Part shown: positions 31,819 through 61,107 of the stretch, piece by piece
Layout of the letters: the number at the start of each line of letters is the position of its first letter
Position numbering within the stretch: the stretch's first letter is position 1
From: Candidatus Woesebacteria bacterium
GTDB lineage: Bacteria; Patescibacteriota; Microgenomatia; UBA1400; UBA12108
DNA length: 64,000 nucleotides
Assembly: GCA_018060845.1 (NCBI GenBank)
Contig: JAGOVG010000005.1
Coordinates: 2,530 to 66,529, forward strand
Direction of reading: 5' to 3'
Translations under genes and position numbers: made by a program
The notes under the pieces: generated by a model
Databases searched by the model: none
Told to the model about the DNA's origin: nothing
The model's input: the letters and a program-made list of their open reading frames with translations, nothing else

Positions 31819-34185
31819 ATGTCAATAAAAGCGCTTGCGATCACCATCTCACTTTTACTGCTCACTGTCTTAGGATTTTACAAGTTTAAACCCACCCCAC
31901 TCGGCATCAATCTGGTAGGCTCCGGCTCTAGCTACAGTGTAGTTGTAGCTGGCGCTGGTACGGGCGGCATCTCTGCAGCTATCCAGGCAGCTCGGATGGG
32001 GAGCATGGTACTTTTGACCGAAGAGACAGATCTACTGGGTGGCCAGATCGGTGCCGCAGGAGTTACCTCAACCGATATCGGTGACTGGAAGTGGAACTCT
32101 GGAATATCAGCTGAGTATATAAATCGAGTCAAAGCGTACTATGCTCAAAAAGGCTTAAGCCCAGGCACCTGTTACTTTATGCCCAACACGGTCTGCCCTG
32201 AGCCACATGTAGCACGCAAGATCTTAACTGACATGCTCTCGAGCGAGCCCAACATTACACTCGCTTATAACTCCAAAATAACCAAAGTCATTAAAAATGG
32301 TTCACAAATAATCGGTGTCGAACTAAACAACCAAACCAACATTGAGACCAGGTTGGTGATCGATGCGACCGAGTACGGCGACATCCTCCCCCTCGCTCAA
32401 GCAGAGTATCGCTATGGCAATGCGACTAACTCTAGTCCCGACGCAAATGCCTGCCTCCAGAACATCACCTACCTCGCAGTAGTCAAAAAATATCCATCAG
32501 GAGTGCCAGAAGAGCTTAAAATCAAAACTCCTCCTCCCGGGTACGACACGTCCGTTAAGCAAAAATTTGCAGCGATAGTAACCAGAAATGGTAGTGACAC
32601 GTTTAATGGCCAATACCCTTACTCTGTTGCACTCCATAACTCCTACCGCGGGATGCCAAACTCCAGTTTAGCTAGCAGCGAGATCACCAAGACTGGGGTC
32701 AACTGGGCCAACGACTACGCTATCCCAAATGCGCAGAGCTACCTAGAAGATCCAATCTCGCGCAAAAATGCCAACTGCAATGCAAAGTTGCACACCCTCC
32801 AGTTCATCTATTATCTCCAAACAGAACTAGGCCTTTCAGACTGGTCGGTCGCTACCGAAGAGGGTTACAACTCGCCATACAACCGATCCCAGGCATGTTC
32901 TAACATTCCAGCAGAACTAAAGGCAATCGAATACAACCTACCCATCATCCCTTACGTCAGGGAGGCACGACGCATGATCGGCCTAACCACAATTACAGCC
33001 AAAGATATTTATCGTACCGGTACCCCAAAAAGAGGCAAGACCTTAATGCCTACTAGCATTGCCGTTGGCGACTATCACACCGATCTACACAACTGCAATA
33101 CCAACCAGACCCTCGAATCTAGTTTTGAAAGTAGTAGCGACAACAGTGATATAGGCCCATTCCAGATCCCACTCGGCTCTTTGATCTCTAGCAATATCGA
33201 CGGCCTAATCGCAGCCGAAAAAAATATCTCAGTCTCTCGGCTTGTTAACGGTGCCGCTAGACTACAGCCTATCACTATGGCAACAGGTCAGGCAGCTGGA
33301 GCGCTAGCTGCCATATCTGCAGCCAATCAAGTAAGGCCTAGGGACATCAACCCGCTAGCTGTGCAGAGTGCACTTTTGAGTGCAAAATCAATCCTTTATC
33401 CCTCTTTTGACACGGATCCCAACCACCCTCTCTTTAGACCCATTCAGCTCTCGCTCCTACGTATGCAGATCCTCCCTGTCTCTGAAATCAATTTTGTACC
33501 AGATCAAAAAGCTTCCAAAACAGAAGTTGCAATAGCTCTAATGCGAGCCAAATACGGCCCAGGTTATGTCCCTACCAGTCGAACTGTTGTCTATAGCGAT
33601 GTCCCATCTGCGCTCTGGAGTGCCCCCTGGATCAACCAGTTAAGTATCGATGGTATCTCACTACCTTGTGAGCCCAACAAGTTCTGCCCTGACAAAATAG
33701 TAACTCGAGCAGACCTCGCAATCATGCTAGGTCGAGCCAAATACGGCCCTACTGTCCCGAGCTATAGCAGTAGTGTCTTTAGCGATCTACCTCTCTCTAA
33801 CCCCGCCTCACCCTGGGCGCAAAAACTCTATCAGGACAGTGTTACTAGCGGCTGCTCTGCCCAACCGCTCAATTTTTGCCCAACTAACGAAGTCACGCGT
33901 AGCCAACTAGCAGTCTTTTTGGCCAATGCTTACCCACAACCTGCGACACTTAACCCAGTGACCACCACTCCACCTCCCCAGGCTCCCAGCCCTGCACCCC
34001 CTACCCCGACACCCTCGATCGTTCCATCACCAGTCTCCTCGCCATCTGTTCGTACCCTCATACCAGGTGATCTAAATGAAGATGGGCGTGTCAACTTGCT
34101 CGACTTTAATGCCTTAATAACTGGCTTTGGCAACCCCTATACCATCCTCGATTTTAACAACATCTTAACCAACTTTAACAAGTAG
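31819..34185 (+). CDS. Surface protein: N-terminal FAD-dependent oxidoreductase-like domain, three SLH-like repeats, a Pro-rich linker and a dockerin-like Ca-binding C-terminus.
   Basis: GAGTGG FAD dinucleotide motif. Three ~60-aa repeats with W...GI...FCP..VTRADLA.ML (SLH-like). DLNEDGRVNLLD dockerin-like loop. Confidence 0.5.
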   Translation: MSIKALAITISLLLLTVLGFYKFKPTPLGINLVGSGSSYSVVVAGAGTGGISAAIQAARMGSMVLLTEETDLLGGQIGAAGVTSTDIGDWKWNSGISAEYINRVKAYYAQKGLSPGTCYFMPNTVCPEPHVARKILTDMLSSEPNITLAYNSKITKVIKNGSQIIGVELNNQTNIETRLVIDATEYGDILPLAQAEYRYGNATNSSPDANACLQNITYLAVVKKYPSGVPEELKIKTPPPGYDTSVKQKFAAIVTRNGSDTFNGQYPYSVALHNSYRGMPNSSLASSEITKTGVNWANDYAIPNAQSYLEDPISRKNANCNAKLHTLQFIYYLQTELGLSDWSVATEEGYNSPYNRSQACSNIPAELKAIEYNLPIIPYVREARRMIGLTTITAKDIYRTGTPKRGKTLMPTSIAVGDYHTDLHNCNTNQTLESSFESSSDNSDIGPFQIPLGSLISSNIDGLIAAEKNISVSRLVNGAARLQPITMATGQAAGALAAISAANQVRPRDINPLAVQSALLSAKSILYPSFDTDPNHPLFRPIQLSLLRMQILPVSEINFVPDQKASKTEVAIALMRAKYGPGYVPTSRTVVYSDVPSALWSAPWINQLSIDGISLPCEPNKFCPDKIVTRADLAIMLGRAKYGPTVPSYSSSVFSDLPLSNPASPWAQKLYQDSVTSGCSAQPLNFCPTNEVTRSQLAVFLANAYPQPATLNPVTTTPPPQAPSPAPPTPTPSIVPSPVSSPSVRTLIPGDLNEDGRVNLLDFNALITGFGNPYTILDFNNILTNFNK

Positions 34186-39573: not shown

Positions 39574-39612
39574 AATTTGTAGTCTATCACAATCTCCTGC
39601 TACAATAGCAAT

Positions 39613-39792
39613 ATGAACCTAATAACATACTTAAAAGAAGTTAAAGCCGAAATGGTCCACATTACCTGGCCAACCCGTGAAGAAACTCAATTTTTAACTG
39701 GCATTGTCCTAGGTGGCTCTCTCCTCGTCGGACTCTATATCGGTGGTCTCGATTACGGCCTCACCTACCTCCTGGGGATGTTCCTAAAATGA
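39613..39792 (+). CDS. secE: Preprotein translocase subunit SecE (59 aa)
   Basis: Manual translation: MNLITYLKEVKAEMVHITWPTREETQFLTGIVLGGSLLVGLYIGGLDYGLTYLLGMFLK. KxVxWPxR motif plus a single TM. Below the ORF-track cutoff. Confidence 0.75.
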   Translation: MNLITYLKEVKAEMVHITWPTREETQFLTGIVLGGSLLVGLYIGGLDYGLTYLLGMFLK

Positions 39793-40601
39793 AGCAATCG
39801 GGGCTCAACAAATTTCTCGCCCTTTTAATACTGTTGCTATTACTCCCAGACTTATTGCGTTTAGTCCAACAAGTTTTAACCAAAATAGCTCCCAAACCAC
39901 TCTCAACAACCAACTCAAACTACTCACCGACACCCAACCAAACACCAGATTACTCAGTGAGTGAACCACGTCAACATGAGAGCAAAGAACTAAAAATCAC
40001 CTTATCGATACCAAATCCTAGTATGACAGTCTCTTCAGATGATGTCAGAGACTATAAAGACGAAGTAAGCAGCCAGGCCATTGTTCGCACTCTCGGAATC
40101 AGCGCAGTAGATGTCGACATTGTGGTTAGTACTGCAACTTCCATCGACAACTCCCCATTTTCGTGGGAAGGGACACCAAGCTACTTGATTGGAAAAATTG
40201 AGAATGATGCGTCTACAGAAGAAATCTTCCAATTGTTAACAACCTATGATTTGAAACCAATATATATACAAAACATATACCTCGAAAACTTTCATAGAGC
40301 CGCATATATTGTTTTTGGAAGATCTTGCTATGGACCTTGTCGTCTGACTAGAACCTATATAATTCCTTGGGAAAAAACAATCGATAACAAAATATATCAC
40401 AACCTTTCGATCAAAATGGATCTTGGCTCAATAGTTTCCGATCCACTCAACGAGATTGATCCTCACATTCCTGACTTCAGTTCAACAACTCTTAGCGAAT
40501 TGACACAGGGTAAATTTACTACTACTATATTTCCAGAAAATATCCAGCAACGTATAAGATTTCAGGACTACATCGTTCAATCTATCGAAGTTCTTCCATA
40601 G
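39789..40601 (+). CDS. Hypothetical secreted protein inserted between secE and nusG
   Basis: ATGA overlap with the secE stop. N-terminal signal/TM (LALLILLLLL). Confidence 0.4.
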   Translation: MKQSGLNKFLALLILLLLLPDLLRLVQQVLTKIAPKPLSTTNSNYSPTPNQTPDYSVSEPRQHESKELKITLSIPNPSMTVSSDDVRDYKDEVSSQAIVRTLGISAVDVDIVVSTATSIDNSPFSWEGTPSYLIGKIENDASTEEIFQLLTTYDLKPIYIQNIYLENFHRAAYIVFGRSCYGPCRLTRTYIIPWEKTIDNKIYHNLSIKMDLGSIVSDPLNEIDPHIPDFSSTTLSELTQGKFTTTIFPENIQQRIRFQDYIVQSIEVLP

Positions 40602-40720
40602 CCTCTATACTATAGTTTGCATGCATCCAACTGTGCATCTATTCAATGATCACTAGTTATGCTATACTTGACAAGTTCCCCCAAGATATTAGTTTAAAAA
40701 AGATAAAAGGAGAATTCATC

Positions 40721-41383
40721 ATGTCAGATGACACTCAGCTAAAGACCGAAGAAATAGTAGAAAAAGTCGAAGAAGCCAAAACAGGAGACATCCTCTCAGA
40801 GGTCAAAGAACCTAACCCCTACCACGTCGTCTACGAAGAAAACGAAGGTCTAGAAAAAATCGCCAAATGGTACGTCGTCCACACCTACAGTGGTCACGAG
40901 CTCAAAGTAGCCGAACAGCTCAAAGTCCGTATTGCCAGCATGCACGTCGAAGGCAAAATCTTCCAGGCCGTCGTCCCCGCCCAAGACAAGATCCAGGTCA
41001 AAAAAGGCCAAAAGAAAACAATCAAGGAGAAGATCCTCCCTGGCTACATGTTGATCAAAATGATTGTCGACGACCTCTCATGGCTCGCTGTTCGCACCAC
41101 CCCAGGTGTCACCGCCTTTATCGGTAGTGTCGGCAAAAAACCTACCCCTATCCCAGAGCGCGAAGTCGACACCATTATGAAGTTTATGGAGGTCAAAGCT
41201 CCCAAATTCAAGAGCACCTTCTCCTCTGGCGAAGCCGTCAAGATCGTGGAGGGACCATTTGCCGACTTCTTGGGTACAGTTGATCACATTGACGAAACCA
41301 AGGGCAAACTATCAGTCCTTGTTTCTATCTTTGGTCGCGAGACCCCAGTAGAATTAGATTTTGCACAAGTTAGCAAAATCTAA
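40721..41383 (+). CDS. nusG: Transcription termination/antitermination factor NusG, with an acidic N-terminal extension. Start at MSDDTQL, which has an AAGGAG RBS.
   Basis: NGN domain (KWYVVHTYSGHE) and KOW domain (GEAVKIVEGPFADFLGTV). Confidence 0.85.
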   Translation: MSDDTQLKTEEIVEKVEEAKTGDILSEVKEPNPYHVVYEENEGLEKIAKWYVVHTYSGHELKVAEQLKVRIASMHVEGKIFQAVVPAQDKIQVKKGQKKTIKEKILPGYMLIKMIVDDLSWLAVRTTPGVTAFIGSVGKKPTPIPEREVDTIMKFMEVKAPKFKSTFSSGEAVKIVEGPFADFLGTVDHIDETKGKLSVLVSIFGRETPVELDFAQVSKI

Positions 41384-41518
41384 GTGATTTCGCTGCGCCC
41401 CACCGAAGCTCACCAGAGCGAAGGAGGGCTCAGGTGTCAAAAATCTAAATATAGGTTATAATTACGCCCGGTACCACGCTTCTAGGTACTAGGTAATTAG
41501 TACTAGGAACTAACAAAT

Positions 41519-41944
41519 ATGGCTAAAAAAATCAAAACAATCATCAAAGTCTTCCCTATGGGCGGTGCGGCTAATCCAGCCCCTCCCATCGGTCCTGCAC
41601 TCGGTCAACATGGTGTTAACATCATGGAGTTTGTTAATCAATACAACAAAGCTACTGCAGACAAAAAAGGTCAAAAAGTCCCCGCCGAGATCACTATCTA
41701 TGAGGATCGCACCTTTACCTTTGTCATCAAGCTCCCCCCAGTCTCCGAGATGATCAAGCAAGAGCTCAAGTTAAAGAGTGGCTCAGGCGTCCCCAACAAA
41801 ACCAAGGTTGGCAAGCTTAGTAAAGCTCAGCTCGAAAAAATCGCCAAAGAAAAAATGCCAGATCTCTCAGCTAGTACTCTCGAGGCCGCGATGAAGACCG
41901 TCGCCGGTACCGCCAAGAGCATGGGTGTAGACGTCGAAAGTTAA
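41519..41944 (+). CDS. rplK: 50S ribosomal protein L11
   Basis: [22 protein letters not shown] signature. Confidence 0.9.
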
Positions 41945-42660
41945 GAGTCATCTGACTGGTAGGTTTCACGAGTTTCTATCGCCAATAATTTTGACTCTAC
42001 TTCATCAGGCATAATTAAATCTTCCGATGCAGCAATCATACTCTCAATCTCGCTTCTTTCAGAACGTTTACCAATAAAATTACCTAAGAAGTCTAAACTC
42101 TTGCTAAGCTTTCCATCAGCAACAGCATCAGTAATTGACTTACTCGCTAGCACAGACGCCGCGAGGAGTAGTGTACCGAAAAAGTCTCCAGGAATATCAA
42201 TTGTATTATTGAAAATAGTAGTTGTCTCTAGCCATCCAGCCAGGAATACACCCACACCCACTGAGCCGACAAACCTTTTTATTGGATCTATTCCTGAGTG
42301 CCCACTTTCCTTCAGTTTCTTATCAATGCGCCGTGATATTAGTTCTGAAAACATAAAACCTAGTGCTGCAATAGTTCCGTCCCCCGTATTCATATCAAAA
42401 AGTCTCTGTATGCCCTCTTGCAACCTTTGGTTCTGCCACAGATCATCTCCCCATGAGTCTACCGCTCTTGTATTCTCCCAAAACCCATAGAAAAACGCTG
42501 CAAAGTAAGGAACTATATCCCTAGTTTTAACAAACCAAAGAATTTCGTCGCCTAGTTTATTACTATTACTCTCTCTCTCTGGATTATCGATCACTACGTC
42601 GACTCTAGTACTCTGTCCGACTCCTTGATCTATGTCATGTTTAACTGTATCTCCACTCAC
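41941..42660 (-). CDS. Hypothetical membrane protein, inserted antisense between rplK and rplA
   Basis: ORF with hydrophobic segments. Confidence 0.35.
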
Positions 42661-42718
42661 TCAGCTATCTTCTCACATTTATCTTGCCTCCATCAACCAC
42701 TTTTGCTATAACATAAAC

Positions 42719-42937
42719 ATGCTAACCAATTCAGACAAGGATGATATCAGAGATTTAATCCGCGAAGAACTTGATCGCGTCGAAAACAAAATAGATAAAG
42801 TCCTAAGTATAGTAACCAGAACAGATCAAGAACACCAGATCACCCAGGCCAAAGTGAACAAGCTAGAAAAACGTACTACCAATATCGAGAAAAAAGTTGG
42901 GATCAAACCTCCAGCCTCTACCACCGTCTTTGCCTAA
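42719..42937 (+). CDS. Hypothetical small coiled-coil protein. Start moved to MLTNSDKDD.
   Basis: ORF with a heptad-like charged pattern. Confidence 0.3.
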   Translation: MLTNSDKDDIRDLIREELDRVENKIDKVLSIVTRTDQEHQITQAKVNKLEKRTTNIEKKVGIKPPASTTVFA

Positions 42938-43015
42938 ACTCCCCCACCTCTGCTATAATCCCCTTATTCATTATTACTTGAATCCGGCCACGTCCGAGAT
43001 ATTAAGGAGAATTAT

Positions 43016-43939
43016 ATGGGTAAAAGAAAAGAATCAACAACTGTAGCTCCAAAAAAGCAAAAGTCCATGACCAAATGGGAGGAGCTCTACACAGATCTCT
43101 CCGATCATACCGCCATGGCTCTCCGCGAAGCCCGCGTTAAGCCAGAACAGCTCAAGAACATGGCCGATGGTGAACTCACTGCAATCAACGGTATTAGTGA
43201 ATCAGCTCTCGAAGAAATCAGGGCCAAATACTCAGCCGATGTCGCATCCGTTGACTCTTCTGTCGAATCTGAATCTAGCGAATCAACCGAAGCTCCCGTA
43301 GTAGTCGAAGAAGTAGGTATCATCCCTCCCAACAAACGCCATGATTTTCGTGGTGGCAAAGCCATGACTACTGCCAAATCTCAGGTCGACCGCAACAAAA
43401 ACTACGGTATCGAAGAAGCGGTCGCACTCGTCAAAAAGACTAACATCACGAGCTTTAACGCAACAGTAACTCTACATCTCAACCTAACTGCCAAAGATGC
43501 CCCGACCCGTGTCGAGCTCACCTTCCCTCATGCAGCCGGTGCAGCCAAGAAGGTGGCGATTGTTAGCGACGAACTCTTAGCCAAGCTCGATAAAAATATT
43601 ATCGACTTTGATATCCTCATTACTACTCCAGCTTTCATGCCTAAGCTCGCTAAATACGCGAAGTTTCTAGGTCCCAAAGGACTAATGCCTAACCCCAAAG
43701 CTGGAACCGTTACCCCCAATCCCGAGGCCAAAGCTAAAGAGTTTGAGGGTGGTAAGACCCAGGTCAAAGCAGAACCCAAATATCCTCTCATGCACGTGAC
43801 AGTCGGTAAGACCAGTCAGCCAGAGGCTGAGCTAGTCGCCAACATCCGCGCCATGATAGAGGCAGTCAGACCTAAGTTCATCGTCAAAGCAACTCTTGCT
43901 GCGACAATGAGTCCAGGTATCAAGCTATCTCTAAACTAG
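43016..43939 (+). CDS. rplA: 50S ribosomal protein L1, with an unusual ~115-aa N-terminal extension. The extension contains a helix-hairpin-helix-like motif and an acidic Ser/Glu linker. The canonical L1 core begins near 43364.
   Basis: L1 core motifs (NYGIEEAVALVKK, TVTLHLNL, GPKGLMPNPKAGTV). The extension is in-frame with no stop. Confidence 0.8.
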   Translation: MGKRKESTTVAPKKQKSMTKWEELYTDLSDHTAMALREARVKPEQLKNMADGELTAINGISESALEEIRAKYSADVASVDSSVESESSESTEAPVVVEEVGIIPPNKRHDFRGGKAMTTAKSQVDRNKNYGIEEAVALVKKTNITSFNATVTLHLNLTAKDAPTRVELTFPHAAGAAKKVAIVSDELLAKLDKNIIDFDILITTPAFMPKLAKYAKFLGPKGLMPNPKAGTVTPNPEAKAKEFEGGKTQVKAEPKYPLMHVTVGKTSQPEAELVANIRAMIEAVRPKFIVKATLAATMSPGIKLSLN

Positions 43940-44092
43940 TCCTATAACTTGACATTTATCCCGTATCACTGCGGTCATTTTCATCAGGGTGTCCGAGTTT
44001 CTCGGACTGAAGATTAAACTACATTTAATATCAACGACTAGCGCGGACGCAAACAATATATTAATAACCAAAGTGTAATATACTGATCATAT

Positions 44093-44959
44093 ATGACAGA
44101 AACACTACCAATAGCCCAAGAATGGAATCAATATAACGGAGAACTCCGCAACACAATTGTTAGCGCGCTCGCTACTAAAGGCTCGCCTCTCTCTGCAGGC
44201 GACGTAGTCGATGGACCTCCCACATTACCTCTTATTGGACTATTAGCCGAATCTCAGGGTGAGGCGGCAAGATACCACAAATTATATCCCGACAAAAAAT
44301 TATCAGTTGTCGAAGTTATGGCTAGTATTCGTAACTTTTCAGATCAAGTAAGAGCCGCCGAACTCGCGGGAAAAAACGCCTTAGATTTTCACTATGTCGA
44401 CGGTAGTAGCGAAAAACTAACACCCCGAGCCGCCAATGCTAGGCTACTCGGATTTACAATCTATGCACTCGATCGTCATCTAATCGACCGAGAAATGATA
44501 GAGGATATCCTTAAAAACGAGGATCCCTTAGAATTCTGGAAGAAACAGGTAAAAGATCACTCAGTTGATGGGAACGAAATGCTAAATGAACTCATTATTA
44601 AACATCCGTACCACCCTTTTAACATCCAAGCCAGACAACTGATACCTAGCGCTGAAAGCCCTGATATTATTTTTGAAGATAATCCTGTTATGCAAACTGT
44701 CCTTGATGCACACAAAATGCATCTACGTTTACAACAAGCTCGCCCCCATGGAACAACTTTGCAAGATCTACTCGTGACACAGCAAGCTACCCTTGAGCTT
44801 GTCAGCATGTACCACCCACTCCCTGATGAAGCTCTACAAATCAATACTCTCGCTTTTTTGGGCAAAAAGACTGTTGATGATAATGAATTTAGTGCGCTCA
44901 GCACAGCTATCACAAAATACATGTACGAAACCAAGTATCCTGCCCTCATCTCGCCCTAA
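44093..44959 (+). CDS. Hypothetical protein inserted between rplA and rplJ
   Basis: ORF only. Confidence 0.35.
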   Translation: MTETLPIAQEWNQYNGELRNTIVSALATKGSPLSAGDVVDGPPTLPLIGLLAESQGEAARYHKLYPDKKLSVVEVMASIRNFSDQVRAAELAGKNALDFHYVDGSSEKLTPRAANARLLGFTIYALDRHLIDREMIEDILKNEDPLEFWKKQVKDHSVDGNEMLNELIIKHPYHPFNIQARQLIPSAESPDIIFEDNPVMQTVLDAHKMHLRLQQARPHGTTLQDLLVTQQATLELVSMYHPLPDEALQINTLAFLGKKTVDDNEFSALSTAITKYMYETKYPALISP

Positions 44960-45101
44960 TCTATATAGTGTTATACCCTAGTACAAACACTTATTCACTT
45001 GTAATTCAACACTACCCCTGCTACAATACTCCTAATCCTCAAGACAACAGGCAATTACCTAAGTCCTGTCTAAGGCAAGTCACCACAAGTTGTGGTAATT
45101 A

Positions 45102-45135
45102 GCTGTCTATCTGGAGGACAGCTATTTTTGTTTTT
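45102..45135 (+). terminator. Hairpin gctgtc-tatctggag-gacagc followed by TATTTTTGTTTTT, ~80 nt upstream of rplJ. This is a candidate rplJ-leader attenuator/terminator.
   Basis: Inverted repeat plus T-run. An L10 leader with an attenuator is known in E. coli (established knowledge), but homology is not demonstrable here. Confidence 0.4.
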
Positions 45136-45211
45136 AGACACTTAGTGTATAAAAACAACCCCTAACGTAGCCTTAAGGCGAAGTGGGGTCAATACCGAAG
45201 GAGAGCACACA

Positions 45212-45733
45212 ATGCCAAATCTAAAAAACCAAGGCCAAGTCAAAGAACTAGAGGCAAAACTAGACTCAGTCTCAGCCATCTTCCTCGCTGACTACCAAGG
45301 CATGAACACCAAAGATCAGAGGAACCTCCGTGCAGCTGTCCGTGCAGCTGGTGGCGAACTCCTTGTCGCCAAGAATACTCTCCTCAAGATTGCCCTCACC
45401 AACAAAGGCTACGATGCCGAGTCCATCTCCTCTTTTCTCAAAGGCAGCACCGTTACCCTCTTTGCAGGCGCCGATGCCGTAGCTCCTCTTAAGGCTCTAG
45501 TCGAATTTGCCAAAAAGCAAGACAAAGAGCTCCCCGCCGTCAAAACTGGATTCTTAGGAAAAGAGACCCTCTCAGTCGAGAAAATCCAGCAGTTAGCCGC
45601 TCTACCAAGCAAGACCGAGCTCATCGCCAAACTCTTGGGTACCCTCTCTAATCCAGCCCGCAACATGGTCAACGTCCTGGTCGCCCCTATGCGCAACCTA
45701 GTTTATGCATTAAACGCTATTAGTAAAAAATAA
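45212..45733 (+). CDS. rplJ: 50S ribosomal protein L10
   Basis: 173 aa with an L10 pattern. Confidence 0.9.
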
Positions 45734-45744
45734 AGGAGACAAAT

Positions 45745-46122
45745 ATGTCAGATCTTAATGCTCTAGTAGAGCAAATCGAAAAATTATCCGTTCTCGAAGT
45801 CGCCGACCTCGTCAAAGCACTCGAAGAAAAATTTGGTGTTAGTGCAGCCGCTCCTATGATGGCCGCTCCAGCAGCAGGTGCAGCAGCCGCCGCTCCTGTC
45901 GAAGAGAAAGACAGTTTTGATGTCGTACTCACTGCAGGTGGTGCCAACAAAATCGGTGTCATCAAGGTAGTTCGCGAACTCAACCAGACCCTCGGCCTCA
46001 AAGAAGCCAAGGATCTAGTCGAAGCAGCTCCAAAAGTACTCCTAGAGGGTGCTAAAAAAGAAGATGCCGAAGCAGCCAAGAAAAAGCTCGAAGAAGCTGG
46101 TGCAACAGTCGAACTCAAATAA
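45745..46122 (+). CDS. rplL: 50S ribosomal protein L7/L12
   Basis: Ala-rich hinge. C-terminal domain [28 protein letters not shown]. Confidence 0.9.
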
Positions 46123-46145: not shown

Positions 46146-46174
46146 AAAAACCCCGTCATAAGGCGGGGTTTTTA
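46146..46174 (+). terminator. Rho-independent terminator after rplL (ccccg-tcataagg-cgggg + TTTTT)
   Basis: GC hairpin followed by a T-run. Confidence 0.6.
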
Positions 46175-46196: not shown

Positions 46197-46763
46197 TTAC
46201 CATGATCTAGTTGATAGCTTTGGCGCAAAATGACCTTGAAGATCAAAATTCAAGTCTCCATGTATCTTCGGGTCGTACTCCTGCCATTTTCCTTTCACCA
46301 TTACCCTATACTCATACCACTCTGCCCCATCTGGCTCTGTATGCAGCGTTACTCTTTTATCTGTATGCTGAATTATCGCACCCCTCCTTCGACTACCCTT
46401 AAATCCATTTCTCATATATCCATCAACAATCGGGAAATAATCGCGCTCATCATCTGGATTATCTAATCGTTTCCCTTGAGACACAGTAAGAAATTCCAAA
46501 GCATCCTTGGCTCCATGATAATATTCTTCGATTTCACGATTAGTCAAGTCACATGGCTCTTTTCCTAACTCACCAATCATATATATGCCTACAATAGTGC
46601 TTAATGTATGCGCTGTTCTCGCCGCCATGAGTTCAATCAACTGACCAGGATTAGAGTTTCTATCGACAACTTTAATAATTTTCCCCAGTAAATCTAGATT
46701 TGCGTATCCACGACTATCTAGTATTCTATAAAGCTGAAGTTCAGTTTGTGTACCCATACACAC
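46197..46763 (-). CDS. Hypothetical protein (188 aa). Divergent partner of wHTH paralog A. RBS AGGAGG.
   Basis: ORF. Its ~45-nt leader is nearly identical to that of gene 50269..50898. Confidence 0.4.
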   Translation of the reverse strand: MCMGTQTELQLYRILDSRGYANLDLLGKIIKVVDRNSNPGQLIELMAARTAHTLSTIVGIYMIGELGKEPCDLTNREIEEYYHGAKDALEFLTVSQGKRLDNPDDERDYFPIVDGYMRNGFKGSRRRGAIIQHTDKRVTLHTEPDGAEWYEYRVMVKGKWQEYDPKIHGDLNFDLQGHFAPKLSTRSW

Positions 46764-46861
46764 CTCCTATGTTTTGTTTAACCCCATAATATTGACAGAT
46801 CCTGGTATAATTGCTTGATTAGTTAGTTGACACTAATATGTCAACTTGACAGAGTATCGTT
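46764..46861. promoter_or_regulatory. Divergent intergenic control region. It holds the conserved leader (CATACACACCTCCTATGTTTTGTTTAACCCCATAATATTGACAGATC), TTGACA-type repeats, and the 7-bp inverted repeat GTTGACA-ctaata-TGTCAAC.
   Basis: Near-identical ~45-nt block also at 50896..50940. The palindrome was read directly from the sequence. Confidence 0.5.
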
Positions 46862-47947
46862 ATGAACAGTTATAGTCAAATGCCAATCAACTACCTCGAA
46901 CCTCAGTATTCAACCTGGGGCAGATATCTCTCATCGCATCAAACATGTAACATATTTTTTCTTAAGAACACAGGTATCATCCCGCGTATACTCCAGTTTG
47001 TTGACTATTACCATGGTGTTGAAAAAATAAAACCAGTTGTCCTCGATCTAGAAGCACTCAATGCTACTGACCCTCATAATCTCCTGACTGTATTATCCGA
47101 GGCTGGAAGCAAACCAACCATAATAATAGCCAGAGACCTATTCCTTCAGCCAGGTGCTAGCCGACTCGAGAAGGTTCTGGAACAATACTATGTCTCATCA
47201 ACTAGTGGTCTATTAATCGTTCATGAATGCGCACCACACGAACTTTATAACAACTATGAGCGAGCATCATGTCTCTATGTACACCCTCAATTATTCAAGC
47301 TACCCTCAGAAAAGTCAGTGTTAACAGAATACATTAAGAGTACATCTAGATTATGGAAACTGACCTTAACTCCGGCAATAATAGATGAAATTATTGCCTA
47401 CTCAGGCAATATCCCTTGGTTACTCAACGAAAGCATAAGACTCTGCAGCGAAAACCCAAACCTCAAATTTATTGAAATATGCAAACTCCCGAGTCTGAGC
47501 AGCAGAGTAATGTCGTTCTATTCGACCCTCCCCAAGATCTACAAAATACAGCTAAATAGTAAAATGGATCAAGTGGCAAAAGACGAATTAATCGGTTTTG
47601 GACTCATGCAAAGCGACCATCTAATTGGTGAACATTTAAACGAATCTACACATAACTACAAAAAAGAAAAGTTAACAACCACTCCAACCCAGATCCTTCT
47701 TAACTCTATCGACATCTCTGCCTTTTTCTCAAACAGTGAATTGCGACTCATCAACTTACTAAATACTACATCTAAAGAAACTCTAACACGTGATGAAGTG
47801 GCAAATACATTTTATAATACAGACGAGTCATACAGCGACTGGGCCCTATCTCAGATGATCACTAGACTTAGGGCTAAAATAAACAAGCACGAGATACCCT
47901 TAACTATCACGACCAAAAGAGGTATAGGATATGGGATCTCCCGCTGA
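46862..47947 (+). CDS. Standalone regulator with a C-terminal OmpR/PhoB-type winged-helix domain (paralog A; its N-terminal domain diverges from B and C)
   Basis: C-terminal ETLTRDEVANTFY...SQMITRLRAKINK...TKRGIGYGI matches the trans_reg_C pattern. Confidence 0.5.
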   Translation: MNSYSQMPINYLEPQYSTWGRYLSSHQTCNIFFLKNTGIIPRILQFVDYYHGVEKIKPVVLDLEALNATDPHNLLTVLSEAGSKPTIIIARDLFLQPGASRLEKVLEQYYVSSTSGLLIVHECAPHELYNNYERASCLYVHPQLFKLPSEKSVLTEYIKSTSRLWKLTLTPAIIDEIIAYSGNIPWLLNESIRLCSENPNLKFIEICKLPSLSSRVMSFYSTLPKIYKIQLNSKMDQVAKDELIGFGLMQSDHLIGEHLNESTHNYKKEKLTTTPTQILLNSIDISAFFSNSELRLINLLNTTSKETLTRDEVANTFYNTDESYSDWALSQMITRLRAKINKHEIPLTITTKRGIGYGISR

Positions 47948-49319
47948 GCAGTTTTTACCATTATCAGTAGTCGCGAGTATTACTGGAATCTGGCCACAAC
48001 CACTCCATGAACCAGGTGTAGTATCGATTCTAAAAGAATATCCAAAAGGTGCTGTTGGCATCGGCTTGAATGCTACGAGAAGTACTCTCATCGAAAGCAC
48101 TTCAGTATCAGGTAGTTGCGCTGTTCCCGATGGGCATTATCAGGGAGAACAATCAGGATTAACACGGGCACTCTCTCCGGTTTTTACCAACCGCCAAGTT
48201 AACGTTAGAGCTGGAAAATCCGATGACGCTGCCCTACTCCCACCCGAGGCAACTAATACTTTTTCCCATGCCTCAAATCTAGATTTGATTGAAGATGATA
48301 GTCCCGACGCCACAGCCTGGAAACAAACTCTTAACTTTCAGTCTGGACCTAACATAGATATTGTCGAAAAATCTAAATTTCGTAATCTGGAATCAGTCAA
48401 TGCAATCCTCTTTGCTATCTACCCAGCCTACACCTACCTTAACTCACTAGACAGAGATGGATATTACAGTCTTTTTCGCCACGAAGGACGTATCACAATT
48501 TTAAGGTATCACAATTTTAATAATAGAACTCATGGAGGAACCAACTTTATAGCTATTCCTAATGGCAGAGACGAGTATAACGAGCGTAGTATCGGCCGCG
48601 TACACCAAACGCGAGCATTAGCCCACAACTCAAATGGTGAACCAGGTTTTTTCACAGATCCTCGATTTTATGATGAACCTAGCCGGCTACTCATAGACTC
48701 ACAAGACCCTAGCATTCGCCTCAAATGGCTTGCTCAAGAACTACGTACCCAAACACGAAAACCCTCTCATCATGTCGACTTTGGTAGTCACCACCTCGAA
48801 ACACTGAGGTATTCAACAGATAAAATTAACCCTAACGACGCTTCTCGCATTACAGCAGAAGTTTTTAACGCACTGTTTGAGAATTACGACTTCACAGCGG
48901 GTCAACTCAAGTCTCTCGGTCTTTGGGGAACAGTATTTGCTCAAAATAATGCTAGAGAGGTCAAGCAAAGCCTAGAACGTGCTGAAGCGACTTACTTTAG
49001 AGACAACGCTTCTCACGGAGGAGTATTTAGTAAGCTCAGCAGCCATCTATTTGCCGAGCTTATGGCTATCGCCCTGCCAATCCCTCTAAGTCAATTTATC
49101 ACCCGCCCAACCAAAAGCGATCGAGTTATCGCAACTTCGTACATTGGTCATCATAGTCCACGTTCTCTCTGGGCAGATCGACAGCTTACCATGGCAAAAA
49201 ACGCATTAGAAAAAACCAAACGTATCGCTAAATCACGTGGAGACGAAAACACAGTTAAGATGTTGGAGCACGATATTCACTACTTCAGCAATGAAATCTC
49301 AAAATCTAGCTGGGATTAA
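47931..49319 (+). CDS. Hypothetical protein (462 aa), likely co-transcribed with wHTH paralog A (17-nt overlap)
   Basis: ORF only. Confidence 0.4.
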   Translation: MGSPAEQFLPLSVVASITGIWPQPLHEPGVVSILKEYPKGAVGIGLNATRSTLIESTSVSGSCAVPDGHYQGEQSGLTRALSPVFTNRQVNVRAGKSDDAALLPPEATNTFSHASNLDLIEDDSPDATAWKQTLNFQSGPNIDIVEKSKFRNLESVNAILFAIYPAYTYLNSLDRDGYYSLFRHEGRITILRYHNFNNRTHGGTNFIAIPNGRDEYNERSIGRVHQTRALAHNSNGEPGFFTDPRFYDEPSRLLIDSQDPSIRLKWLAQELRTQTRKPSHHVDFGSHHLETLRYSTDKINPNDASRITAEVFNALFENYDFTAGQLKSLGLWGTVFAQNNAREVKQSLERAEATYFRDNASHGGVFSKLSSHLFAELMAIALPIPLSQFITRPTKSDRVIATSYIGHHSPRSLWADRQLTMAKNALEKTKRIAKSRGDENTVKMLEHDIHYFSNEISKSSWD

Positions 49320-49540
49320 CCTTCTTTTTGCGTACTTCTCTGCATAGCTTCAGCCTCTCCTGCACCCTGATAAAACTTTTCAAATAAGTCTTTCCAATCT
49401 TTAAATCTTGTTTTTTGATACGAAGAGCCATCTAGAGTGCCTGGGGGAAAGTTGTATTTCTTTTCCCACAACCTCTTGGCTTCTTCACTCATTCCCTCAA
49501 CCTCTTGTAAAGCATCAGTAGCAGCACTCATTCTACTCAT
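49316..49540 (-). CDS. Hypothetical small protein
   Basis: ORF only. Confidence 0.25.
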   Translation of the reverse strand: MSRMSAATDALQEVEGMSEEAKRLWEKKYNFPPGTLDGSSYQKTRFKDWKDLFEKFYQGAGEAEAMQRSTQKEG

Positions 49541-49635
49541 ATCTATATATTATCAAATTATCGCTCGTCAACTTGACACCCATAGTCAGCTAAGAGGTCA
49601 AGCGAAGTTTGTGAAGCAGGTTTAATATACAGAAC

Positions 49636-49893
49636 ATGGCCATAGGTGAAAAAGATGTCTTATACGATCCACAAGACTTAAAGGAGCAGATCATTGCTGC
49701 ACTAACCCCTGCTCAACTGGCACGTATCGAAGAGTACAGTAACATGGCTGAAGTCGCAGGAGTTACAGTCAAAGCAGAATATGGCCCACCCGCACAAATC
49801 TATATAACAAATAGTCTCCGTCAAGGAGCCACAACACCATTACCCAAGGGTAGCGAGCTAGCCCAAATCTTACAGAATAGAACAAGAACCTAG
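49636..49893 (+). CDS. Hypothetical protein (85 aa)
   Basis: ORF only. Confidence 0.3.
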   Translation: MAIGEKDVLYDPQDLKEQIIAALTPAQLARIEEYSNMAEVAGVTVKAEYGPPAQIYITNSLRQGATTPLPKGSELAQILQNRTRT

Positions 49894-49898
49894 GAATA

Positions 49899-50243
49899 AT
49901 GATAAATATCGCTCACTTTGACAATGATCCACTTGTGTTCAGAAACACCGAAAAATTTCTTAAGCCTGCTGGTATAAATATTGTTAGAAAGGTGGAGTCT
50001 CTCAAGGATGCTCGAGTAATTATCCCTACTTTATTTGATCTTGGGGTCATCCTAGCTCTAATCGATGGCGATATCGGTGGAGAAGAGATTGCCAGACTCC
50101 TCGCTCAGGTTTGCCCATCAATCATCCGCGTAGGTTACACAGCTGAAGCTCGTTTTGATAACTTGCATGAGTACATTTTCAAAACCACTCCACCAGATGA
50201 GTTTGTTAGGTTAGTTAAATTGTATACAGCTCAAACAACATAA
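49899..50243 (+). CDS. Single-domain CheY-like receiver protein (orphan response-regulator receiver domain)
   Basis: Acidic pair FDND near the N-terminus. Candidate phospho-acceptor Asp in LALIDGDIGG. Conserved T (VGYTAE) and K (IFKTTPP) in the expected order and spacing. Confidence 0.45.
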   Translation: MINIAHFDNDPLVFRNTEKFLKPAGINIVRKVESLKDARVIIPTLFDLGVILALIDGDIGGEEIARLLAQVCPSIIRVGYTAEARFDNLHEYIFKTTPPDEFVRLVKLYTAQTT

Positions 50244-50268
50244 TACACGGCTGTACTACATAATCGAT

Positions 50269-50898
50269 CTAATATCTAAAAGCGTCCCAAAGATGAGGTG
50301 CTTCACCGTTAGCAAATGAGGTAATCCCATTCTGTATATAACGTTTACTAACTTCATCTATGTCATCAAAGGAAACACCAACTGGTCTTACATCGCTAAG
50401 TATTGAATTAATAGAGCGCAGCAATGTGTGTGGAAACCAATATATCTTATTATCTAATCCGCCGTAGACAAATTCTATTTCATTTCGATATTCGATACAG
50501 TCAAATATAGGACTAGGCCACTCAGAAATATCTATGGGCACACGATATGGCCCACCCCAGAGTGTTCCACTCCCGTGCTTCTTGATATATACCCCCCTAT
50601 CCTTCGCACTGCCATTACAGGTTTTTGAGACCACGCTCACTGCTCGCTGCAGATCCCCTCGGTATTGCAGTATATGCTCACCGTACATGGCTCTGTTTGC
50701 ATCTGGTATTAGTGAAGCCTGATCAAACGCGAGTTGATACAACGCAATCGAAGTCCACCAAGATCTATATCCATCATCGCCATTTGCAGCATTATGCCAT
50801 TCTACTAGTTCTGGGCGTACTAACCTGCCACTACCATCAAGCATGTGCTTACTAATCAATTTAAACGCATCCTTCCAAGTTTCTCTTTGGCCTATCAT
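50269..50898 (-). CDS. Hypothetical protein (209 aa). Divergent partner of wHTH paralog B. RBS AGGAG.
   Basis: ORF. The leader is conserved with that of 46197..46763. Confidence 0.4.
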   Translation of the reverse strand: MIGQRETWKDAFKLISKHMLDGSGRLVRPELVEWHNAANGDDGYRSWWTSIALYQLAFDQASLIPDANRAMYGEHILQYRGDLQRAVSVVSKTCNGSAKDRGVYIKKHGSGTLWGGPYRVPIDISEWPSPIFDCIEYRNEIEFVYGGLDNKIYWFPHTLLRSINSILSDVRPVGVSFDDIDEVSKRYIQNGITSFANGEAPHLWDAFRY

Positions 50899-50965
50899 AC
50901 ATATCTCCTAAGTTCATTTAACCCCATAATCTTGACACATCTGAGATAATTATCTTGACACTTTT
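50899..50965. promoter_or_regulatory. Divergent intergenic control region, paralogous to 46764..46861 (TTTAACCCCATAATCTTGACACATC). It has two CTTGACAC repeats 24 bp apart and a TGACGTCA palindrome at the start of the + gene.
   Basis: Direct alignment of the two intergenic regions. Confidence 0.5.
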
Positions 50966-52000
50966 ATGACGTCAAAGAACTGGACTATACCAACTATTAA
51001 CTTTACCCACTCTCCAGAGCTGGAGGCTCGGCGTATCCTCTTTGTCGCCGGTAGCCTCGCCCGTGGCTGGTACCAAAAACACAACTTCCTCATCCTCCCC
51101 GAGCTTGCTGCGCGTGCTCCATCCAGCCAGGTCATCCTCCCCAACCTACCCTATACCACAATCCCTCGCTTTTGGGAGAGTGTGGCCAAACTCAAACTCG
51201 TGACTCCACAGCTCGCGCCTGCCCCGCTCATTGCCGCTACCGAGGCATTGTGTAAGCCATTCTACAAACCAGCGCTATATGTTAGTCATTTATCAGAGCT
51301 AGAAAAATCATATAATCAAGTCAAAGATAACTTTTGGAATACTTTATTTACTCTATTTCCCAGCTACTCCTCCAGAGTAAAAGTTATTACTATCATCAGT
51401 TCTCAGTACGGATCGAGCTCCAGCTTTAACTTGGCTACCACAGAATATAGTTCGATCACAATATATCTACGATCTGATACCAAAATCGATAAACTACTCT
51501 GGTCTATCCTTGCCGCAATCTTTCGACCAAAAATGCAAGATGAGCAAAAATATAGCTGGGAAGAGGTCGAGGCCGTAATAGACTGGCTCATGTCCGAGTC
51601 CAGCCTGGCAGCTAAGCTATCACACCCCCACCCAACTCTCACCAATCTGCGAGCCAACCAACTGTCTAAGTATCGCCAGGATAGCGAGGCATATCTCTCT
51701 AGTCTTGGTATCTCTGGCGTGCTACGCCTAGAAAAGCTTAGTAGTAGCTACTCATATGGTGACACCAAGATCTCTGATTTGACTACCAAACAGCAGATCC
51801 TACTCGATCTACTCCTCGTGAGACGCGGTTTAACCGTAAGTTACGACGAAATCGCCGCATCACTTTGGCCCGACGACGAAGATTGGTCTCTGTATGCCAT
51901 AACCAAAGAAGTTCAAAGACTGCGAGACAAAATAAAAAGTTGTGGGATCAACTCTCCACTCATCCACGCACACCGCAAACTCGGCTACTCGATCGCCTAG
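50966..52000 (+). CDS. Standalone regulator with a C-terminal OmpR/PhoB-type winged-helix domain (paralog B)
   Basis: C-terminal LTTKQQILLDLLLVRRGLTVSYDEIAASLW...RLRDKIK...HRKLGYSI. The N-terminal domain aligns with 14383..15417. Confidence 0.55.
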   Translation: MTSKNWTIPTINFTHSPELEARRILFVAGSLARGWYQKHNFLILPELAARAPSSQVILPNLPYTTIPRFWESVAKLKLVTPQLAPAPLIAATEALCKPFYKPALYVSHLSELEKSYNQVKDNFWNTLFTLFPSYSSRVKVITIISSQYGSSSSFNLATTEYSSITIYLRSDTKIDKLLWSILAAIFRPKMQDEQKYSWEEVEAVIDWLMSESSLAAKLSHPHPTLTNLRANQLSKYRQDSEAYLSSLGISGVLRLEKLSSSYSYGDTKISDLTTKQQILLDLLLVRRGLTVSYDEIAASLWPDDEDWSLYAITKEVQRLRDKIKSCGINSPLIHAHRKLGYSIA

Positions 52001-52022
52001 AACAACCTATTACTTATCCACA

Positions 52023-52060
52023 CCTGCCCGCAGTGCTATAGCACAGCTATTGCAGGCGGG
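52023..52060. repeat. Family R2 small hairpin repeat, copy C (cctgcccgcagtgctatagcacagctattgcaggcggg). The inner stem carries a compensatory G-C pair where copies A and B have A-T.
   Basis: Alignment with the copies at 21714 and 62528. Confidence 0.5.
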
Positions 52061-52290
52061 TTCCCCCATTTATCCATACCACTACTGGTAGTGCCGCGCC
52101 CCTAACGAAGCCATAGGCGGAGTGGGGTCCTAGGTCGCACAATACATCTATATCAATCTATTCATTTATAACTACTAGAACATCTTCATAGATCTATACA
52201 TATCATATACATAGTCAAATGATATCCTATTGACACTCACCCATACAATTGCTAATATCAACACATAACCTGTAATGAGCTCGCCGAATT

Positions 52291-52497
52291 ATGAACAACT
52301 CAGTCGATCTAAAAAATCTCCCCGACCTACTCACAGTTAGAGAAGTAGCTGACCTCCTCCGTGTCTCTCCCCTCACCCTCAAACGCTGGGGCAAACGCGG
52401 CAAGCTCCCTGCTATTCGCATCAACTCGCGCGGTGACCGCAGGTACAAAAAAGAACAGGTTCAATGGCTACTTGGAATTAATCCAGATCAAGCTTAA
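52291..52497 (+). CDS. Small excisionase/MerR-type HTH (HTH_17-like) DNA-binding protein
   Basis: LLTVREVADLLRVSPLTLKRWGKRGKLPAIRINSRGDRRYKKEQV pattern. The 4-nt stop overlaps the convergent dus gene. Confidence 0.5.
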   Translation: MNNSVDLKNLPDLLTVREVADLLRVSPLTLKRWGKRGKLPAIRINSRGDRRYKKEQVQWLLGINPDQA

Positions 52498-58221: not shown

Positions 58222-58261
58222 CCCATTGACACCCTATAGCATAAGTGTAGAATACACATCT

Positions 58262-59566: not shown

Positions 59567-59579
59567 CCAAATATAGCCA

Positions 59580-59641
59580 CTAGAACTAAATGCACTCAAA
59601 TTTGATCTGGAATCAAAGGTTGCTACAAATACTAGCAACTA
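59580..59641 (+). repeat. Orphan second copy of the upstream gene's C-terminal tail (encodes ELNALKFDLESKVATNTSN*)
   Basis: Alignment to 58160..58221. Confidence 0.6.
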
Positions 59642-59931
59642 ACTAATTACCCTCTTTTGTGTGTCCCGGGCCATACTTAATCTCTCCGCCATTCGCAATA
59701 AGAGTCCTAGACCCTATCGTTCCTTCGGGACTAATTTTAGGCGCGAATATTTCACAAAGAAAATTCGGTAATCCCAAAAACACTAAAGTTTTGTAAATCC
59801 ACATACTTTCTGGTTCAACTGCATTTGTCATGATTATCCTTTAGCAAAAGAATTATATATTTGTGCGTACCATTTACACACAAAAAGCTATTTTACACCT
59901 CTCTCACAACTTGTCAACAACATTGCAAAAT

Positions 59932-60387
59932 CTATTTAAACAACTCAGCCTTACCCTTTACTGCCTTATCAATCGCATCTAACATACTCCCCGAGTCTCT
60001 GGGAGATTGCCAGATCACATTGCTAATGGCTCCAGCCAATTCTTGAATATTTCCTGCACGCACATGGCGGTAATTTTTCAATACTATCTTACTAGCGAGA
60101 GTGTCAGCGTCTTTCTTAACAGTTTCAAATACCTTTTTGTACTCACCCTCAGATCTTACTAAGAGATGTACCGCGTTAGCACTAGACAGATATAATAATA
60201 AGAGAGCATTTTCATCATGGTTCAGATTAAAACCATCTGTATCAGCCACCATCATTAAGATTGTTGAGATGTTGCCAACCCAACCAAACGCGTCTACTTC
60301 ATCTGTAGGTATACTCCTAACCGAATCAACGTATGCCTGCCCTAAGACAGTTGCTAGCGCCAACACACCCTCAATATTTATGCTCAT
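59932..60387 (-). CDS. Hypothetical protein (151 aa)
   Basis: ORF only. Confidence 0.3.
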   Translation of the reverse strand: MSINIEGVLALATVLGQAYVDSVRSIPTDEVDAFGWVGNISTILMMVADTDGFNLNHDENALLLLYLSSANAVHLLVRSEGEYKKVFETVKKDADTLASKIVLKNYRHVRAGNIQELAGAISNVIWQSPRDSGSMLDAIDKAVKGKAELFK

Positions 60388-60479
60388 TTTGTATCATTCT
60401 CCATATTGACATAGTATAAGAGAGGTGTATTATATCCTATATTATTAGTAAATACACATTAAATATATAAGGATAAAAT

Positions 60480-61052: not shown

Positions 61053-61107
61053 TAGACAGAGTACTATTATGTTACTTTAGTTCTCTACTTAAGCTATAAT
61101 TGTAAGG

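Follow-up and report, generated by a model that had tools for sequence, protein, structure and literature searches.

How a cluster of ribosomal protein and transcription factor genes can accommodate additional genes at three of its junctions, and what then becomes of its feedback regulation, is the question raised by a 64,000-nt stretch of DNA from a Candidatus Woesebacteria bacterium (contig JAGOVG010000005.1), to which we refer as the window and whose genome we call W. The six core genes secE, nusG, rplK, rplA, rplJ and rplL were identified with the list of open reading frames (ORFs), Pfam and NCBIfam, and all of them lie co-oriented and in canonical order on the plus strand between positions 39613 and 46122 (Table 1). 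They have the same genes, order and orientation as the classical secE-nusG, rplKA and rplJL(-rpoBC) arrangement of E. coli and most bacteria, but they are not tightly adjacent, as gaps of 0.86, 1.07 and 1.27 kb contain four genes that we designate ins1 to ins4. A preliminary description had read this three-junction interruption from the sequence and called it unusual; the four extra genes, none of which belongs to a known family, were found as reported there, coordinates included, and W does differ from the compact state of many close relatives (L003, L004, L005, L010, L011 and L013; L-numbers denote the related loci that we compared). With a probability of roughly 0.7, we consider that the cluster is modular, that the boundaries between its units are recurrent slots for accessory genes and that the feedback leaders have been preserved.

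We scanned species-representative genomes and JGI metagenomes with the L1 protein, which provided about 38 loci from a clade sharing a 307-aa L1 at 55-97% identity. Further loci were added through look-ups of insert homologues, and synteny was tabulated by tblastn. About half of the relatives have a filled rplK-rplA junction, and about a quarter a filled rplA-rplJ junction. The former measures at least 0.97 kb in W, L025, L001, L012, L028-30, L031, L032, L022/23, L009, L008, L021 and L036, and at most 65 bp in L003, L004, L005, L006, L010, L011/L037, the L013 group, L033, L039 and L043; the latter reaches at least 1 kb in W, L024/25, L001, L027, L012, L007 and L009. The secE-nusG junction is filled in W and L021 only, and nusG-rplK only in L008. 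In the L1 tree, filled and empty states are interleaved in a patchy manner and the basal lineages are compact; L003, with an 87% identical L1 and a position next to the W subclade, is yet compact at all three junctions that are visible there. The inserts are absent from L003, L004, L005, L010, L011, L013 and others and are thus not fixed in the clade.

The same slots hold other cargo elsewhere, such as AbiEii-type toxin modules (L028, L036), an IS3-type transposase (L044), a glycoside hydrolase together with a glycosyltransferase (L008) and, in further relatives, many unrelated ORFans. The AbiEii nucleotidyltransferase toxin genes (L028, 7229-8090 and 9115-9950; L036, 168-1026) are each accompanied by a partner gene for about 85 aa and are located between rplK and rplA in both loci, in L028 also just downstream of rplA, where the contig ends before rplJ. 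With regard to synteny, the question left by the preliminary description therefore has a divided answer: the same inserts occur at the same junctions in some relatives, which excludes a one-off recent event, but their absence from many others, including a close one, shows that they are not essential members. Fixed membership of the operon, restriction to W and a single recent mobile-element insertion are all at odds with this distribution. Instead, the junctions are recurrent slots for patchy accessory genes, and the constant flanking core genes, the variable presence and content and the unrelated cargo families are those of an integration hot spot.

Because W derives from a metagenome-assembled genome (MAG), the interruption could in principle be an artefact of mis-assembly or chimerism, or the inserts could be spurious ORFs in spacers. 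One relative could illustrate such problems: in L012 (5479-6410), residues 1-183 and 170-307 of rplA are encoded in two different, overlapping frames with N-runs nearby, owing either to a frameshift in a pseudogene or to faulty assembly. However, the same architecture recurs in independent assemblies from different samples and pipelines (L025, L024, L001, L021 and L022; NCBI GCA_964393925, Logan SRR25018341 and SRR21875704, ENA ERZ27247837), and the inserts have conserved protein homologues with dN/dS ratios (non-synonymous to synonymous substitution rates) below 1. We therefore regard an artefact as highly improbable.

The preliminary description had proposed that the inserts may break the autoregulatory coupling through L1 and L10, and it had pointed to leader structures as a possible check. 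Directly before rplJ, a predicted promoter and an L10 leader with attenuator are present in every relative examined, filled or compact, with the exception of L013, whose attenuator is unrecognisable. We assessed this leader by covariation on 17 distinct sequences, RNAalifold, Rfam and a terminator scan. In the covariation analysis 93.8% of cells were paired, in comparison to 31-40% in slid controls, nine pairs carried changes on both sides, and none of 500 shuffles reached the observed covariation. In an Rfam search restricted to 226 nt, RF00557 (L10_leader) was the top match and was aligned over the full model (1-138). The element occupies the same site as the L10(L12)4-interacting leader with kink-turn that has been described upstream of rplJ (PMC3616713); like RF00557 it has a terminator/attenuator and a U tract, and its core AAGACAnCAGG...CCUGnC(G/U)AAGG is compatible with the kink-turn of L10(L12)4 sites (PMC3616713). 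By its sequence and predicted fold, it appears as a divergent variant of L10_leader from the Candidate Phyla Radiation (CPR). An extra segment of about 70 nt (45135-45211) separates the attenuator from the rplJ Shine-Dalgarno sequence in W, L001 and L003 and carries small palindromes (45128-45158 and 45165-45184); in most relatives, the U tract is 11-44 nt from the start codon.

A second structured element, a hairpin, precedes rplA. It ends 6 nt before the ATG in W, and its position is kept in all 14 distinct relatives, in which the leader consists of ACUUGA, a variable stem, usually a bulged A, and UUAAGGAG, 6-10 nt from the start codon. The hairpin is the lowest-energy fold in 13 of the 14 distinct sequences, and L013 is able to form the same hairpin. 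Its invariant closing helix covers part of the Shine-Dalgarno sequence, with more than ten different, covarying inner helices, and in compact genomes it follows directly after the rplK stop codon. L1-interacting mRNA structures directly before rplA are known from Cyanobacteria, Actinobacteria, Chloroflexi and some Firmicutes (Fu et al. 2013, PMC3616713), and their signature is a 6-12 bp stem and an internal bulge with a G-A pair and an unpaired A (PMC3616713). The W hairpin is in the same place between rplK and rplA, overlaps the Shine-Dalgarno sequence in the same way and has a short stem with a 3'-side bulge and often an unpaired A, but a G-A pair is not assignable from the sequence. We regard this hairpin as a candidate autoregulatory site that may be bound by L1.

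Each insert precedes the promoter and leader that belong to the core gene following it, and the proposed break in autoregulation was thus not borne out. Because all cargo lies upstream of the next promoter and leader, autoregulation through L1 and L10 is probably kept despite the inserts. Only the co-transcription of rplK and rplA would be lost in W, and in its place the sequence predicts a promoter that overlaps the ins3 stop codon.

The predicted promoters point to the same modular layout. Boxes of the form TGCTAYAMT precede secE (39598), nusG (40660), rplA (42951) and rplJ (45019), all on the coding strand, and these four account for four of the seven matches to TGYTAYAMT in the window. The rplJ -10 box is conserved in all relatives and its TG extension in most, and the nusG promoter with its 5' untranslated region (UTR) element is conserved in eight of the nine relatives listed, the ninth (L003) being masked by Ns. 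A motif related to the nusG 5' UTR element, TATAACTTGACA, is found after the rplA stop codon at 43943-43954. The rplA promoter is found only in genomes with an insert at this junction, its -35 box consisting of the last codons and the stop of ins3 (TTTGCCTAA); in compact genomes, the rplK stop codon occupies that position. A conserved -35 box, an extended -10 box and an N6-ATG start are common to all ins3 homologues.

The box-N6-ATG layout (TGnTAnAnT) is shared by secE (39598-39615), ins3 (42704-42721) and the ORF at 16765-18738 (16750-16767). The secE mRNA is probably leaderless, and the recurrence of this layout suggests that leaderless mRNAs may be common in W. In the rplK 5' UTR (about 41480-41512), UAG (or UAGGxAx) recurs every 7 nt; the rplK leaders of L012, L003, L004 and L005 have similar 7-nt repeats, and other relatives are almost without a 5' UTR. 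These repeats might provide stop codons in each of the three frames or an array of protein-binding sites.

In our preferred model, the cluster would not be one tight operon but a chain of self-sufficient transcription units, secE, nusG, rplK(-rplA) and rplJL. Their independence would be provided by the predicted extended -10 promoters at secE, nusG, rplA and rplJ and the TATAAT-like site at rplK, and rplA would keep its cis-regulatory hairpin and rplJ its L10 leader/attenuator immediately upstream. The boundaries between units could then act as permissive slots in which related lineages acquire, lose and exchange accessory genes, with the near-invariant ribosomal genes probably serving as anchors for homologous recombination. 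In W, three of the four slots would be filled by four lineage-restricted, fast-evolving genes with a low G+C content at third codon positions (GC3), ins2 and ins3 forming a divergent pair and the ins4 family giving rise to tandem paralogues in a sister strain; the lost co-transcription of rplK and rplA would be replaced by the promoter built into the 3' end of ins3.

The genes that fill the slots are narrowly distributed. The ins1 start overlaps the secE stop as ATGA, through which ins1 appears to be translationally coupled to secE. A hydrophobic helix at the N-terminus (residues 4-32) is followed in this protein by a linker rich in Ser, Thr and Pro and by a C-terminal alpha/beta domain. Its earlier description as secreted stands as far as the N-terminal hydrophobic helix is concerned, but there is one helix only, which could equally be a membrane anchor. 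Among 5.8e9 proteins, its sole other homologue is 42% identical, shares conserved motifs and is likewise located between secE and nusG in L021. The ins2 protein carries the conserved motifs NTGDGTI and NNTIDxPGDxFG, and its homologues are antisense as well and occupy the rplK-rplA junction in L022/L023, L025, L001 and L021. Its antisense orientation and length were reported correctly, but the term membrane protein is not firm, as it has only moderately hydrophobic Gly/Ala-rich segments, and a crude Kyte-Doolittle scan found no 19-residue window of at least 1.6.

The small coiled-coil ORF between rplK and rplA is likewise present, with a length of 72 aa, not 73. In eight other genomes, among them L001, L009, L012, L021, L022, L025 and L044, an ins3-type gene directly precedes rplA; in L033 and L039 such a gene precedes rplJ. 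L008, L001 and L021 retain relics of the ins3 3' end even though the gene itself has decayed, as does L007 upstream of rplJ. The 288-aa gene ins4 separates rplA from rplJ as described earlier and has no known family. Its product shows the conserved motifs HHPsG...ANARllG and YPDxPL, and orthologues with 84-86% identity precede rplJ in L001 and L024/L025, in the latter preceded by two paralogues (277 and 575 aa) and a protein with six transmembrane helices. An exhaustive HMMER profile search for ins4 in 1.84e9 representatives gave only five proteins, without a link to a known family, and the ins1, ins2 and ins4 families have one to three other members each among 5.8e9 clustered proteins. The public names of the insert proteins are hypothetical KBD69_03510, _03525 and _03540 (Candidatus Woesebacteria bacterium).

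None of the four matched a family in Pfam, NCBIfam, PADLOC or PHROGs, except for generic coiled-coil noise in ins3, and sequence-profile searches of the PDB for clues to the insert functions gave no match. The AlphaFold2 models were unusable, with a mean pLDDT (predicted local distance difference test) of 40 for ins4 and 49 for ins1, and a Foldseek search of the PDB with the low-confidence ins1 model found nothing below E = 0.1. A resemblance of ins1 to the mycobacterial secreted proteins MTC28/LpqN was rejected as unreliable (probability at most 0.47, TM at most 0.35). Judging from the hydrophobic helix at the start of ins1, the fast evolution of the inserted genes, the allele replacement at ins2 described below and the toxin modules in the slots of relatives, our best guess is that the cargo consists of envelope, host-interaction or conflict-related proteins.

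One could suppose instead that the inserts are functional partners of their neighbours kept for co-expression, ins1 serving the Sec translocon as an accessory or being one of its substrates, and ins3 and ins4 acting as ribosome- or translation-associated factors. The ATGA coupling of ins1 to secE and its same position in L021 would fit such a role, as would the fact that, in at least ten genomes, an ins3-type gene immediately precedes rplA or rplJ and shares promoter sequence with it. However, the inserts are absent from many relatives, close ones included, that have the same core genes, their families are tiny and fast-evolving, unrelated cargo fills the same slots elsewhere, and similar ORFan insertions are found at non-ribosomal sites of the window, all of which makes a functional partnership quite improbable.

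Because the inserts have homologues with conserved motifs and dN/dS ratios below 1, they are real coding genes, under purifying but relaxed selection. The ratio is 0.19-0.27 for ins4 and 0.49 for ins3, and 0.02-0.05 for L11, L1, L10 and NusG. In the comparison of W, L025 and L001, the synonymous divergence (dS) of ins4 and ins3 approximately equals that of their flanks, and these two genes were therefore inherited together with the cluster. For ins2, a dN of 0.67 and a dS of 1.6 were found against L025, with a dS of 0.25-0.47 in the flanks, which points to allele replacement rather than to divergence in place. After nusG, W has a specific 65-bp insert that ends in a second nusG 3' end; these last seven codons show synonymous differences from W nusG and are 100% identical to the native end in L012, and BLAST did not reveal the segment as a repeated sequence. 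We consider this relic a probable recombination scar.

These data also bear on the possibility that the inserts are recent discrete mobile elements, such as an insertion sequence (IS), a miniature inverted-repeat transposable element (MITE), an integrative islet or a toxin-antitoxin cassette. The IS3-type transposase and the AbiEii modules at the same junctions of L044, L028 and L036 would agree with such an origin, as would the 65-bp insert with its duplicated target-like sequence and the composition of the inserts, which are lower than the core genes in GC as well as in GC3 (0.34-0.43 against 0.38-0.57, most core genes having 0.45-0.57 and rplL a low 0.381). However, the boundaries of ins1 to ins4 showed neither terminal inverted repeats nor target-site duplications; no transposase, integrase or recombinase was matched in the W inserts with Pfam, NCBIfam or PHROG, and no defence system with PADLOC or defence or toxin-antitoxin family with Pfam. 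The dS of ins3 and ins4 equals that of the flanks, which indicates co-inheritance over the divergence of W, L025 and L001, and homologues occur at the same junction in genomes down to 64-67% L1 identity. The exclusive occurrence at these junctions and the flank-matching dS refute a recent mobile origin, and we regard this explanation as a whole as improbable. The frr-secE or secE-nusG intervals of L010 (about 8421-8608), L006, L008 and L009 contain palindromic, GC-rich spacers of 100-200 bp (e.g. GGTCTGACCTG...CAGGTCAGACC) that may represent small non-autonomous elements.

A more far-reaching interpretation, which we offer tentatively and consider rather unlikely, is that the ins3-type gene is a portable operon-splitting adaptor that carries a promoter at its 3' end, with ribosomal genes anchoring hypervariable envelope or conflict loci. 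This small, leaderless gene, with TTTGCCTAA as the -35 box of a strong TG-extended promoter, would, wherever it is placed, allow the ribosomal gene behind it and the leader of that gene to be transcribed again. Its occurrence before rplA in about nine genomes and before rplJ in two, and the relics in L007 and L008, would then reflect a means by which an essential cluster carries variable cargo, and the ribosomal genes of an episymbiont would anchor hypervariable loci as conserved flanks do for O-antigen and capsule.

Several observations weigh against the modular cluster with preserved leaders. The L10 leader is below threshold, with 18.1 bits in comparison to the Rfam gathering score of 44, and the rplA hairpin had no credible Rfam match; at gathering thresholds Rfam found only tRNAs in the window, and in E-value mode over 7.8 kb nothing was found in the leaders. 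The single-sequence folding energies of both leaders resemble those of shuffles (z = -0.76 and -1.42); because this stability is not significant, the structural argument rests on covariation. The motif TGYTAYAMT is not enriched throughout the window (7 matches, 5.2 expected), so that only the positions of the boxes are telling, and the promoters, leaderless starts and attenuator are deduced at the level of sequence. Most relatives are fragmentary MAG contigs with many junctions out of view, and the case for recombination is built on discordant rates at a single gene and on a single duplication relic. The comparison itself shows the gene identities, the occupancy of the slots, the conserved positions of the insert families, the relaxed purifying selection on the inserts, the covariation in the leaders and the conserved promoter sequences; promoter activity, L1 binding, recombination as the route of exchange and the functions of the cargo are parts of the preferred model that we infer.

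The ribosomal cluster is not the only site of additional DNA in W. Over 33 kb, W is colinear with L003 and L002, with extra DNA at six intergenic sites, three of which are the ribosomal cluster junctions. Because similar insertions are found at three other intergenic sites in these 33 kb, the cluster is not specially targeted but is one example of a genome-wide insertion pattern. Genes in the stretch that follows the rplL terminator (46197-52400) are mostly absent from relatives; one encodes a 361-aa protein with only a C-terminal winged helix of the OmpR/PhoB type (Trans_reg_C, 290-357) and no receiver domain. The rpoBC genes are located neither downstream of rplL nor anywhere else in the window.

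Two core genes required closer annotation. The longest nusG ORF (from 40646) is overextended by 25 codons, and conservation in relatives and the reading of the sequence place the start at ATG 40721, behind the AAAGGAG Shine-Dalgarno sequence. The first part of rplA (43016-43345) encodes a clade-specific N-terminal extension of L1 of about 110 codons that is kept throughout the clade and consists of a KK-rich start, a helix-hairpin-helix-like ELTAINGISESALEEIRAKY and an acidic Ser-rich linker. The match to the bacterial L1 model begins only at residue 114, about 30 positions short, with a score of 142 against a cutoff of 216. Saccharibacteria also have long L1 ORFs (296-353 aa), whose N-termini could not be aligned with this extension.

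Table 1. Position of the core genes, the inserted genes, the predicted regulatory elements and further W-specific DNA in the window.
Feature	Position	Strand	Description
W-specific insertion	31819-34185		788-aa FAD-dependent oxidoreductase gene; in comparison to L003/L002
secE promoter	39598..39606	+	Predicted extended -10 box TGCTACAAT, 6 nt before ATG
secE	39613..39792	+	59 aa; Pfam SecE, 6.9e-18
ins1	39789..40601	+	270 aa; between secE and nusG; ORF list and sequence reading
nusG promoter and 5' UTR element	40660..40720	+	Predicted promoter TGCTATACT, motif TTGACAAGTTCCCC, AAAGGAG Shine-Dalgarno
nusG	40721..41383	+	220 aa; TIGR00922, 9.4e-57, over residues 75-245 of the overextended ORF
65-bp W-specific insert	41384..41448	+	After nusG stop; ends in second nusG 3' end GCTCAGGTGTCAAAAATCTAA
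rplK promoter-like site	41434..41462	+	GTGTCA-17-TATAAT, just after nusG stop
rplK (L11)	41519..41944	+	Pfam Ribosomal_L11_N and Ribosomal_L11
ins2	41941..42660	-	239 aa; family C; between rplK and rplA
ins3 promoter	42704..42712	+	Predicted extended -10 box TGCTATAAC, 6 nt before ATG
ins3	42719..42937	+	72-aa coiled-coil protein; family A, begins 'MLTxxD...'; directly before rplA
rplA promoter	42930..42959	+	Predicted; TTGCCT-N18-TGCTATAAT, TG-extended TATAAT
rplA leader hairpin	42977..43009	+	CUUGA, variable stem, bulged A, UUAAG; overlaps AAGGAG Shine-Dalgarno; candidate L1 site
rplA (L1)	43016..43939	+	307 aa; Pfam Ribosomal_L1, 1e-24; rplA_bact, 1.9e-41, under curated cutoff
ins4	44093..44959	+	288 aa; soluble; family B; between rplA and rplJ
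rplJ promoter	45019..45027	+	Predicted extended -10 box TGCTACAAT
L10 leader	45037..45134	+	Predicted kink-turn-like CCU/AGG stem, covarying helix, second hairpin, terminator/attenuator 45100-45124 and U tract
rplJ (L10)	45212..45733	+	Pfam Ribosomal_L10, 6.5e-23
rplL (L7/L12)	45745..46122	+	Pfam, both domains
Terminator hairpin closing the cluster	46146..46173		Strong, 12 bp; flanking A-/T-runs could serve both strands
W-specific ORFan stretch	46197-52400		6.4 kb after the rplL terminator; L003 has 0.8 kb here
W-specific block	58222-61107		2.9 kb; ORFs 58184-59566, 59932-60387 (minus) and 60480-61052; in comparison to L003/L002

In E. coli, the rplJL unit has its own promoter, PL10. The W cluster resembles the classical arrangement in that rplJL is a separate unit with its own predicted promoter and L10 leader. 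Unlike in that arrangement, secE, nusG, rplK and the split-off rplA have predicted promoters of their own, accessory genes are present at three boundaries, the candidate L1 site is located before rplA and not before rplK, and rplL ends at a strong terminator without rpoBC.

Integration hot spots and flexible islets between conserved core genes, for example at O-antigen and capsule loci, are already known, and it is the placement in a ribosomal protein cluster that is unusual. The W slots are like such hot spots in their fixed flanks, variable content, unrelated cargo in one slot, AT-richer cargo and one over-diverged allele, but unlike typical ones they lie inside a cluster of ribosomal protein and transcription factor genes and contain one to four genes that are nearly all ORFans. 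We found no report in the literature of insertions in CPR ribosomal clusters. In loci of Saccharibacteria and of an alphaproteobacterial MAG (L014-L020), the rplA-rplJ junction is also opened by unrelated genes, over 4-5 kb. Two genes recur at this junction in Saccharibacteria, one for a protein with an MprF-like lysylphosphatidylglycerol (LPG) synthase C domain (L014, L015 and L017) and one for a dCTP deaminase (L014 and L018). This content, being partly annotated and recurrent, is more like a lineage trait than the patchy ORFan slots of the W clade.

The locus thus indicates that there is room for cargo that varies between strains even in one of the most conserved bacterial gene clusters, provided that every core gene retains its promoter and feedback leader, and it provides an example of regulatory modularity that permits gene flux. 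For practical work, synteny-based marker extraction in MAGs of the CPR should not presume that these genes are contiguous. The CPR versions of two leaders, an L10 leader/attenuator missed at the Rfam threshold and a candidate L1 site before rplA, could improve the annotation of Patescibacteria genomes, and a recurrent small gene with a predicted promoter at its 3' end emerged as a by-product. The four narrow, fast-evolving insert families, together with this recurrent small leaderless gene, are candidates for strain-level interactions with the envelope, hosts or phages in Woesebacteria.

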